From Escherichia coli (lineage in GTDB: Bacteria > Pseudomonadota > Gammaproteobacteria > Enterobacterales > Enterobacteriaceae): DNA of 64,000 bases. Numbering within the stretch: the first letter of the stretch is position 1; every line of letters begins with the position of its first letter. A model generated the notes under the pieces. It had not been told where the DNA came from. It was given only the letters and a program-made list of their open reading frames with translations, and did not search any database. Positions 14,067 to 29,728 of this stretch are shown here, one piece after another. Position numbers and translations under genes: made by a program. The stretch lies in NCBI RefSeq assembly GCF_003018115.1, contig NZ_CP027457.1. The stretch is one strand, 5' to 3'.

Positions 14067-14167
14067 GCCTGATGCGCTACGCTTATCAGGCCTACACGTA
14101 TCCTGCAATATATTGAATTAGCAGGTTTTTGTAGGCCGGATAAGGCGTTCACGCCGCATCCGGCATG
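14067..14167. repeat. BIME: two REP palindromic units in inverted orientation
   Basis: gcctgatgcgctacgcttatcaggcctac and gtaggccggataaggcgttcacgccgcatccggcatg match the REP consensus. Confidence 0.8.
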
Positions 14168-27042: not shown

Positions 27043-27174
27043 TCCCTTCTCCACACCGTTGCCGCGTTGCGCATTCTACTTTGCGAGTCTGCTCCAGAAA
27101 ATAAATCAAAGTCAGATCAATGCGTTGTGTTTATTTAATGGGGATTTACGATGGCAGGACAGCATAGGGCTGTA

Positions 27175-27330
27175 ACGGTAAAGCCCTCACCGAAGCGAGG
27201 GCTTGAAGGAGAAGGGTTATGATGCGACTTGTCATCATACTGATTGTACTGTTACTCATAAGTTTCCCAGCTTATTAACAGTCAGTCTCAGGGGAGGAGT
27301 CATCCTCCCTTACCCTTACTCACTAAATTA
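27175..27330 (-). ncRNA. sibC: Sib-family antisense RNA (antitoxin) opposite ibs copy 1; ends approximate
   Basis: Inferred from the conserved Ibs/Sib architecture (antisense RNA spanning the whole toxin ORF and its SD); flanking hairpins at 27181..27204 and 27289..27310; ends not determinable from sequence alone. Confidence 0.4.
27219..27278 (+). CDS. ibsC: Ibs-family type I toxin peptide, 19 aa (MMRLVIILIVLLLISFPAY), copy 1
   Basis: ATG ATG start with GAAGGAGAAGGG SD; 19-codon hydrophobic ORF matching the Ibs family; below the ORF-track size threshold. Confidence 0.7.
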   Translation: MMRLVIILIVLLLISFPAY

Positions 27331-27359
27331 GGTCAAAGAATCAACGATGTCAATCAGGG

Positions 27360-27427
27360 CGATGCGGGATGTATCGCCCTGAACCGATCATTTGGATGCG
27401 GGATGTATCGCCCTGAACCGATCATTT
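27360..27427. repeat. 34-bp perfect tandem duplication carrying a hairpin
   Basis: ggatgcgggatgtatcgccctgaaccgatcattt occurs twice head to tail; unit contains the inverted repeat agggcgat..atcgccct. Confidence 0.85.
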
Positions 27428-27600
27428 GATAGACACTTCATCGCCCACGTTTACTGCCGTAATTAATCCCTTATCCCTGCAATGTGTGTCTGTCTTACAT
27501 GACGTTTTACGAGTGCGCTCGAAGAAAAAATTTAAAGGTAGATCAATGCATTGTGCATATTTAAAGAGAGTTTACGATGGCAGGGCAGCATGGGGCTGTA

Positions 27601-27756
27601 ACGGTAAAGCCCTCACCGAAGCGAGGGCTTGAAGGAGAAGGGTTATGATGCGACTTGTCATCATACTGATTGTACTGTTACTCATAAGTTTCAGCGCTTA
27701 TTAACAGTCAGTCACAGGGGAGGAGCAATCCTCCCTTACCCTTACTCACTAAATTA
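27601..27756 (-). ncRNA. sibC: Sib-family antisense RNA opposite ibs copy 2; ends approximate
   Basis: Paralogous to the copy-1 region at about 90 percent identity; same inference. Confidence 0.4.
27645..27704 (+). CDS. ibsC: Ibs-family type I toxin peptide, 19 aa (MMRLVIILIVLLLISFSAY), copy 2
   Basis: Same SD and ORF structure as copy 1, 426 bp downstream; peptide matches IbsC as I recall it. Confidence 0.7.
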   Translation: MMRLVIILIVLLLISFSAY

Positions 27757-27804
27757 GGTTAAAGAATCAACGATGTCAATCAGGGCGATGCAGGTGTGTC
27801 GCCC

Positions 27805-28353
27805 TCACCACTCCCAGACTTTCGACGGTGTAACCACCGCAGGAAGAGGGATATCCCACTCTTCAACGGGGAGTTTTTCCACCAACTGACAATCATGCGC
27901 ATAACCCACCGGTTGCATTTTATAGTGCTGCCAGTTTTGTAAGGTCCGATCATAAAAACCACCGCCCATTCCCAGGCGCTGGCCGTACTCATCAAAGGCG
28001 ACCAGCGGTGTGATCAACACGTCTAATCGGGAAAGGGGTAGCACGTCACGCACATCCAATTTTGGCTCATGGATCTTCAACCTGTTCATCACCAGTTCGC
28101 TTTGCGGATGGTAATTCAGGAACAGCAAATTACCGGCACTAAAGGGATGCAAAACTGGAAGATATACGCGCTTACCGGCGCGCCAGAGTTGTTCTATGAG
28201 TGGCTGGGTGTCGAGTTCGCCATCAAAAGAGAGGAATACAGCGACCGTATGTGCCATCACCACCGGGGGATAAGTCATCATCCGGGTAGCGGCTTGTTGA
28301 CCCATTTCCTGCTGTTGTTCCGGCGTTAACGTACGACGACGTTGCCGAATCAT
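27805..28353 (-). CDS. fau: 5-formyltetrahydrofolate cyclo-ligase (182 aa from ATG 28353; alternative upstream ATG at 28407)
   Basis: Translation MIRQRRRTLTPEQQQEMGQQAATRM...; sits immediately downstream of ssrS on the same strand; the long track ORF reading into ssrS is an artefact. Confidence 0.8.
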   Translation of the reverse strand: MIRQRRRTLTPEQQQEMGQQAATRMMTYPPVVMAHTVAVFLSFDGELDTQPLIEQLWRAGKRVYLPVLHPFSAGNLLFLNYHPQSELVMNRLKIHEPKLDVRDVLPLSRLDVLITPLVAFDEYGQRLGMGGGFYDRTLQNWQHYKMQPVGYAHDCQLVEKLPVEEWDIPLPAVVTPSKVWEW

Positions 28354-28423
28354 TTTGCGGATTTCTTGTCGGGATAATGTCAGTGGGAGTTCTGGTAGTT
28401 GCGTCATGGCTGGTGCCAGATAA

Positions 28424-28611
28424 GAAGGGAATCTCCGAGATGCCGCCGCAGGCTGTAACCCTTGAACCCTTGGTTCAAGGTGAATGTGTCGTCGCAGTTT
28501 TAAGGCTTCTCGGACGGACCGAGCATGCTCACCAACCGCGGAGCGCCACATTCTTGTGGTATGAAATATCGGCTCAGGGGACTGGCCCGCTTGCGAACAT
28601 CTCAGAGAAAT
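28424..28611 (-). ncRNA. ssrS: 6S RNA
   Basis: Minus-strand sequence reads AUUUCUCUGAGAUGUUCGCAAGCGGGCCAGUCCCCUGAGCCGAUAUUUCAUACCACAAG...GGAGAUUCCCU, matching E. coli 6S RNA as recalled; ends within a few nt. Confidence 0.9.
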
Positions 28612-28652
28612 TTTGTCTTCACGGTTACTCTACCACAGTAAACCGAAAAGTG

Positions 28653-29048
<396 letters not shown>

Positions 29049-29149
29049 CTATAGCTACCCTGATGAGAAGAGACAAGCCCTTTTCTGGTCCACCAGGGCC
29101 CAAAGTGGTAGCATATCATGAATATTCCTCCCTTTGACGACGAATGCTT

Positions 29150-29728
29150 ATGTCTATACAGAACGAAATGCCTGGTTACAACGAAATGAACCAGTATCTG
29201 AACCAACAAGGGACGGGTCTGACCCCTGCTGAGATGCATGGTTTAATCAGTGGGATGATATGTGGCGGTAACGATGACAGCTCATGGCTGCCGCTACTTC
29301 ACGACCTGACGAACGAAGGCATGGCTTTCGGTCATGAGCTGGCACAGGCACTGCGTAAAATGCACTCTGCCACCAGCGATGCCCTGCAGGATGACGGCTT
29401 CCTTTTTCAGCTTTATCTGCCTGATGGCGATGATGTCAGCGTTTTCGATCGGGCTGATGCGCTGGCAGGTTGGGTCAATCACTTCCTGCTTGGTCTTGGC
29501 GTTACGCAACCGAAGCTGGACAAAGTGACCGGCGAAACCGGTGAAGCCATCGACGATCTGCGTAACATCGCGCAGTTGGGCTACGACGAAGACGAAGATC
29601 AGGAAGAGCTTGAAATGTCGCTTGAAGAGATCATCGAGTACGTCCGTGTTGCCGCGCTGTTATGCCACGACACCTTTACTCATCCGCAACCGACCGCGCC
29701 AGAAGTACAAAAACCGACTCTACACTAA
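29150..29728 (+). CDS. ygfB: UPF0149-family protein (192 aa)
   Basis: [32 protein letters not shown]-terminus; first gene of the ygfB-pepP-ubiH-ubiI cluster. Confidence 0.85.

Follow-up and report, generated by a model that had tools for sequence, protein, structure and literature searches.

The closest described system is the ssrS-fau locus of Escherichia coli K-12, in which ssrS encodes the 6S RNA and fau, also named ygfA, lies directly downstream. The K-12 6S RNA, near-identical to the one in the DNA analyzed here, is known from the literature to bind the sigma70 RNA polymerase holoenzyme and to template pRNA synthesis. The passages of the literature dealing with the transcript state that 6S and ygfA are co-transcribed and that the primary transcript ends by Rho-dependent termination inside ygfA; termination of this kind within the gene is attributed to Chae et al. 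(2011), as cited in PMC3299989. According to the 6S literature, enterobacteria and gammaproteobacteria show a highly conserved linkage of 6S to a fau/ygfA homologue located downstream of it, and the reason for this linkage is still described there as open.

The present analysis concerns a stretch of 64,000 nt of E. coli DNA (contig NZ_CP027457.1), hereafter called the window. Our analysis revealed on its minus strand, in this order, zapA, the 6S RNA gene and the fau open reading frame (Table 1), and the labels given by RefSeq to the identical DNA are likewise zapA, ssrS and fau. The region is the known zapA/ssrS-fau locus of E. coli, ordinary and well studied, and there is nothing new in kind in it, co-transcription and Rho-dependent termination inside fau having already been published. 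The segment 27600-28700 is 100% identical to the E. coli chromosome NZ_OZ547461.1 and is carried by 5425 of the 5426 complete E. coli genomes, with a junction identity of at least 95% in 5424 of the 5425. Variation of the junction within the species is therefore too low to discriminate between two possible starts of fau. The comparison set consisted of 80 loci fetched from different Enterobacterales species, and in each locus the 3' end of 6S was placed by nhmmer and the conserved N-terminal motif of fau by translation.

Table 1. Features of the zapA/ssrS-fau region and of the adjoining sib/ibs modules, with positions counted from the first nucleotide of the window.
Feature	Coordinates	Strand	Source
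zapA coding sequence, 109 aa, upstream neighbour	28653-28982	-	ORF list, RefSeq
Candidate distal ssrS promoter P2 inside zapA (TTGCAA, 17 nt, TAGAGT)	28843-28871	-	sequence reading
Putative proximal ssrS promoter, P1-like (ATGACA, 18 nt, TG-TAGAGT)	28627-28656	-	promoter scan
ssrS, 6S RNA gene, 184 nt	28428-28611	-	Rfam RF00013, RefSeq annotation
Spurious upstream extension of the fau frame, 48 extra codons	28408-28551	-	ORF list
C-rich, G-poor tract over the junction and the first ~22 fau codons, candidate rut region	28342-28431	-	
Pyrimidine-rich junction, 20 nt, from the 6S 3' end to the fau start (CUUCUUAUCUGGCACCAGCC)	28408-28427	-	
fau (ygfA) coding sequence, best supported: 200 aa plus stop, from ATG 28407	27805-28407	-	
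Internal ATG (Met19), start of the 182-aa annotation of MG1655 b2912	28351-28353	-	
Rfam SIB_RNA match	27629-27779	-	
Rfam SIB_RNA match	27203-27353	-	
Ibs peptide (MMRLVIILIVLLLISFPAY)	27219-27278	+	
Ibs peptide (MMRLVIILIVLLLISFSAY)	27645-27704	+	

A first-pass annotation, made by reading the sequence together with a list of its open reading frames, had placed the 6S RNA gene on the minus strand directly upstream of fau and had found this consistent with the known ssrS-ygfA co-transcript. All of its coordinates proved correct. The arrangement is the same in K-12. Of 81 Enterobacterales sequences, 80 have 6S directly upstream of fau and in the same orientation according to nhmmer (Rfam agreed in 19 of the 20 loci tested), and co-transcription is confirmed by the literature. 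A single locus, that of Superficieibacter electus (L038, 1300-1460), had no 6S in the 1.5 kb that precede fau; in it, fau overlaps the stop codon of an unrelated upstream ORF (ATGA), a purine-rich GGAAGAG precedes the ATG, and the long N-terminus is retained (MTLIQPSDTPLSRQQIR). Among the E. coli genomes, strain Z1323HEC0477 (L083, 734-1330) stands apart, being the one genome of the 5425 with a fau allele of 198 aa that does not contain the 6-nt (Leu-Thr) insertion typical of Escherichia. Its junction identity is only 89.9%, and these features suggest an allele imported from, or common to, another genus.

A covariance-model search with Rfam RF00013, the check that had been proposed for the 6S RNA gene, returned a full-length match on the minus strand (model positions 1-187 of 187) of 139.8 bits against a gathering score of 46.4 (E = 2.2e-28), with only two non-canonical pairs flagged; this match is far beyond chance. 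The closing stem and the internal helices of 6S are present in both the MFE and the centroid fold of the P1 transcript, and the fold z-score for the whole 291-nt segment is -2.81. The P1-like site itself shows nine of 12 consensus matches in addition to the extended -10 TG, in a region where two promoter-like sites were found versus 1.3 expected from shuffles. Transcription from it is predicted to begin near 28620, which is 9 nt before the mature 5' end of 6S, and its -35 element is overlapped by the zapA stop codon. The candidate distal site has eight of 12 consensus matches, which is under the threshold of the promoter scan, and its predicted start is near 28835, approximately 224 nt upstream of the mature 5' end; in the literature the distal ssrS promoter P2 is placed at -224. 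The unusual -10 hexamer TAGAGT is common to the putative proximal (28632-27) and distal (28848-28843) promoters.

The fau ORF, with its stop at 27805, encodes 5-formyltetrahydrofolate cyclo-ligase, as indicated by PF01812 (160.8 bits, cut-off 27), TIGR02727 (177.7, cut-off 84.9) and the NCBIfam equivalog NF007661 (446.2, cut-off 343). Three in-frame ATGs are present in it, at 28551 (248 aa), 28407 (603 nt including the stop, 200 aa) and 28353 (549 nt, 182 aa). We estimate the probability that fau starts at ATG 28407 and encodes 200 aa at roughly 0.88, and the evidence for this start is presented below together with that for the other two.

The mechanical ORF (27805-28551, minus strand) takes as its start the first ATG, which lies inside the 6S gene. 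If this ORF were real, translation from within 6S would give an extended Fau of 248 aa, a prospect whose probability we consider negligible. E. coli and E. albertii do keep the frame open from 28551, and a public protein collection contains the 248-aa version as an entry (P0001) that comprises 2588 sequences from automated assemblies (source Logan assemblies). However, these entries come from longest-ORF gene callers and thus provide no evidence of expression. When the 80 Enterobacterales loci are compared, the fau start lies in all three phases with respect to the 6S end (31/25/24), its phase is not the same from one genus to another, and the peptides translated from 6S in the different loci fall into three frames unrelated to one another. 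The reading frame across 6S is not conserved among these relatives: only E. coli and E. albertii have 94 open codons upstream, whereas outside Escherichia the frame is closed by a stop 19-67 codons before the conserved fau motif. In addition, the extra residues are covered by no family profile, no match having been obtained upstream of residue 52 of the 248-aa ORF, and ATG 28551 has no Shine-Dalgarno sequence (-0.7 kcal/mol) and sits inside the strongly base-paired 6S fold. A run of about 48 stop-free codons in DNA of 55% GC is roughly a 1-in-10 event, and no special explanation of the open frame is therefore required. What keeps the 248-codon frame open is a chance absence of stops over a non-coding RNA gene, and the first-pass annotation was right to call it an artefact. 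Through longest-ORF gene callers, this chimera with a non-coding RNA gene has spread into public protein sets.

As for the two shorter forms, the first-pass annotation had described the start as ambiguous between ATG 28353 and ATG 28407, and these are exactly the two starts in public use. The curated MG1655 reference NC_000913.3 gives b2912 as 549 nt and 182 aa (L002, 1742-2290), while PGAP gives 603 nt and 200 aa on DNA identical to that of the window and also on the K-12 assembly NZ_CP178206.1 (L085, 734-1336). The ambiguity need not stand, as five independent lines of evidence, drawn from sequence comparison, profile and structural homology and published ribosome profiling, favour ATG 28407, and ATG 28353 is most likely just an internal methionine. 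In K-12 coordinates the long start lies at 3056187 and the short one at 3056241.

The comparative evidence is based on the position of the start relative to the conserved IRQRRR motif. An in-frame ATG precedes this motif by exactly 17 codons in 67 of the 81 sequences and by 13-29 codons in nearly all of the remaining ones, with GTG in one locus; in E. coli the distance is 19 codons rather than 17 because of a two-codon insertion. According to the reading followed in the curated reference annotation (NP_417387.3) and in several database entries of 182 aa (e.g., P0002 from E. coli ED1a), fau would start at ATG 28353, and the sequence from 28407 to 28353 would be an untranslated leader. Yet only nine of the 80 loci have ATG at the codon that corresponds to Met19, and none has GTG or TTG there, so that this codon is not a start codon in 71 of the loci; it is CTG, CTA, ACT, CAG, GAA, CAT and others instead, and the residue varies freely (L, Q, T, H, E, M and others). 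Upstream of Met19, on the other hand, the 67 aligned loci show an Arg13 that is invariant over six Arg codons, including CGN/AGR switches, an invariant Gln14 (CAA, CAG), an Arg17 invariant over five codons and an Ile16 replaced only by L or V. Such synonymous codon turnover at invariant residues speaks against an untranslated leader, and constraint at the protein level exists between ATG 28407 and Met19. Pairwise differences in codons 13-23 amount to 0.27, 0.18 and 0.64 at codon positions 1, 2 and 3, while no such periodicity is present in the 21 nt upstream of ATG 28407 (0.68, 0.61, 0.67). Indels are of 6 nt downstream of this ATG and of 1 or 4 nt upstream of it.

Profile and structural comparisons also argue against a start at Met19. 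A complete cyclo-ligase domain, including the N-terminal helix at model position 1, was found in the 200-aa form alone. Position 1 of the Pfam and TIGRFAM models aligns to Arg13, six residues upstream of Met19, and four solved MTHFS structures align from residues 12-15, so that homology to profiles and PDB entries begins 4-7 residues upstream of Met19. In the AlphaFold (AF2) model, with a mean pLDDT of 74.7, helix 1 consists of residues 13-26 and Met19 is located in the middle of it; a start at Met19 would therefore cut this predicted helix in half. Residues 1-12 are poorly conserved and are modelled with low confidence.

Ribosome profiling, which had been named as a means of fixing the fau start, has in fact been published. 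TetRP performed in K-12 (Nakahigashi et al., 2016; PMC4909307, Tables S2 row 100 and S5) placed a new ygfA ATG at -54, which corresponds to ATG 28407, and the manual verdict was 'new site', with a predicted product of 200 aa. The signals were 150.5, 4.68 and 0.62 at the new site versus 0, 1.75 and 0.33 at the annotated site, that at -54 being strong in only one of the three samples. The small signal at the 182-aa start in two of the three samples (1.75, 0.33) speaks for initiation there. With -54 favoured by the same data, no Shine-Dalgarno sequence at ATG 28353 (-0.7 kcal/mol), and the conservation and homology upstream of Met19, we regard the 182-aa start as very unlikely. The tables of the TetRP study hold no N-terminal peptide for either form of Fau, ygfA is absent from the genes tested by lacZ fusions in that paper, and the main texts on Ribo-RET (10.1101/520783) and Onc112 (10.1101/511675) make no mention of ygfA or fau. 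The predicted N-terminal tryptic peptide of the 200-aa Fau is (M)TQLPELPLTLSR, and that of the 182-aa form is only MIR.

The non-zero signal at the annotated start could also be read as dual initiation, in which Escherichia, Salmonella and the few relatives with Met19 would produce both a full-length and an N-terminally truncated Fau. The two ATGs are in frame and equally devoid of a Shine-Dalgarno sequence, and many genes with two start sites were reported in the TetRP study (PMC4909307). Its authors, however, classed ygfA as 'new site' and not as 'multiple'. The free variation at the Met19 position gives no hint of selection for an internal start, and the truncated protein would be without the invariant Arg13 and Arg17. 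Dual initiation thus appears unlikely to us, and a single start at ATG 28407 is the reading we retain. The MG1655 start appears to be a lingering misannotation, already corrected by the 2016 data set and by the NCBI pipeline. The fau of the K-12 reference is probably truncated by 18 residues, among them two invariant arginines of the first helix, and cloning or modelling Fau from the MG1655 record may mean working with an incomplete enzyme.

The preferred start has an anti-Shine-Dalgarno energy of only -1.5 kcal/mol, versus -7.8 for zapA and -5.8 for serA, and a gene finder could thus reasonably distrust it. A GGAG in the 3' strand of 6S (28436-28433) was considered as a Shine-Dalgarno sequence for ATG 28407 and rejected, being 25 nt away and paired in the closing stem. 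Weak energies are general at this junction: the median over the 80 loci is -1.5 kcal/mol, values of -4.4 or lower occur in only three, and the spacer between 6S and fau is 15-29 nt long in 56 of the 80. Longer spacers of 98-125 nt, compared with about 20, were observed in Klebsiella and Raoultella (L022, L023, L034, L035) and in Yersinia (L069, L081), at approximately 1380-1500 of these loci. Neither a terminator-like nor a promoter-like site was found in the long spacers of the two loci scanned, and the Yersinia sequence that follows 6S is not rich in C.

A terminator scan of the region detected no intrinsic terminator between 6S and fau (28427-28408). The only terminator-like site in the region (27978-27963) was discarded as a chance match, as it falls inside the conserved GMGGGF coding motif and such sites are fewer than in shuffles. 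In the tract that covers the junction and the beginning of fau, C and G counts are 23/7 and 19/8 in two 60-nt windows, compared with about 1:1 elsewhere, and most of the tract is single-stranded in the centroid fold. Across the 80 loci, the median composition of the 60 nt that follow 6S is 20 C and 8 G. Given this composition and the literature on Rho termination, we infer that the tract is a candidate rut site, although composition by itself is no proof that Rho acts there.

Taken together with published work, the sequence suggests the following course of expression. Transcription would begin at the ssrS promoters, i.e., the proximal one and probably the distal one inside zapA, and would run through 6S into fau without meeting an intrinsic terminator. 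Most transcripts would end Rho-dependently shortly into fau and then be trimmed to the mature 6S RNA, while those that read through would serve as fau mRNA. Fau would be translated from ATG 28407, 20 nt past the 6S 3' end, in an unstructured, C-rich and G-poor stretch without a Shine-Dalgarno sequence. Ribosomes probably load poorly at this ATG, which would leave the RNA accessible to Rho and Fau at a low level, so that only read-through transcripts would make the enzyme. Fau itself would recycle 5-formyl-THF, an inhibitory folate by-product, a role taken from the literature on recycling in vivo, where a phenotype of the ygfA deletion is also reported. On this basis we tentatively propose, as a possibility that we hold to be doubtful, that the junction is a conserved switch at which loading of Rho, giving the 3' end of the 6S precursor, and loading of ribosomes, giving Fau, compete for the same ~90 nt. 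In a lesser variant of this proposal, Met19 may give Escherichia and Salmonella a second, truncated Fau isoform. If the switch exists, the way in which 6S transcripts terminate would directly determine how much of a folate-repair enzyme is made. The conserved C-rich junction devoid of a Shine-Dalgarno sequence offers, in any case, a testable handle on why ssrS and fau stay linked.

Several features of the surrounding DNA were also recorded. Between fau and serA lie two sib/ibs type I toxin-antitoxin modules in tandem (27080-27368 and 27506-27794), which form a 289-nt direct repeat, 90% identical, with a period of 426 nt. Other E. coli strains were matched in two pieces with about 390 extra bases, indicating that the copy number of sib/ibs varies between strains. 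The Rfam SIB match nearest to fau starts at a TTGACA at position 27779, only 26 nt after the fau stop and about 36 nt upstream of the annotated 5' end of K-12 sibC (L002, 2352-2492), and the promoter thus seems to be part of the match. Any transcript that reads through fau would continue directly into sib, which is on the same strand. At a distance from the locus, a match to the Rfam sRNA family ES036 (CssrF) at 14088-14130 (minus strand) scored 40.0 bits, just above the threshold of 37.6. Finally, another small start-site discrepancy is present nearby, since the mechanical ORF of ygfB (29144-29728, plus strand) begins at ATG 29144 and encodes 194 aa (MLMSIQ...), while the RefSeq gene of 579 nt (29150-29728, 192 aa) begins at the second Met.

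Concerning the known systems, E. coli Fau is homologous over essentially its whole length to the MTHFS structures 2JCB (B. anthracis), 1YDM (B. subtilis YqgN), 1SOU (A. aeolicus) and 3HXT (human), with E-values from 7e-23 to 5e-16. In the N-terminal helix of the solved proteins a basic residue and an Arg four positions further on align to Arg13 and Arg17 of Fau, and the GxGGGxYDR motif is common to all. Sequence similarity is nevertheless low, and the enterobacterial proteins possess about 12 extra, poorly conserved N-terminal residues; E. coli Fau also differs from its enterobacterial counterparts by the two-residue insertion, having 200 aa instead of 198. In the human MTHFS structure the N-terminal basic residues are assigned a role in ATP binding; a literature search on such a role of the N-terminal Lys/Arg gave no relevant result. 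The 6S RNA gene, with its full-length, high-scoring match and canonical closing stem, is the type member of the gammaproteobacterial family RF00013 with no notable difference from it. The K-12 ssrS-fau locus (b2911-b2912) has the same genes, order, strand and spacing, a junction that is about 99% identical at the DNA level, and the same neighbours, namely pepP, ygfB and zapA upstream and sib/ibs and serA downstream. The two loci differ in that MG1655 carries a single sib/ibs module here (sibC/ibsC) in place of the two tandem modules of the window, and in that the K-12 reference begins fau at Met19, giving 182 aa, whereas a protein of 200 aa is supported here.
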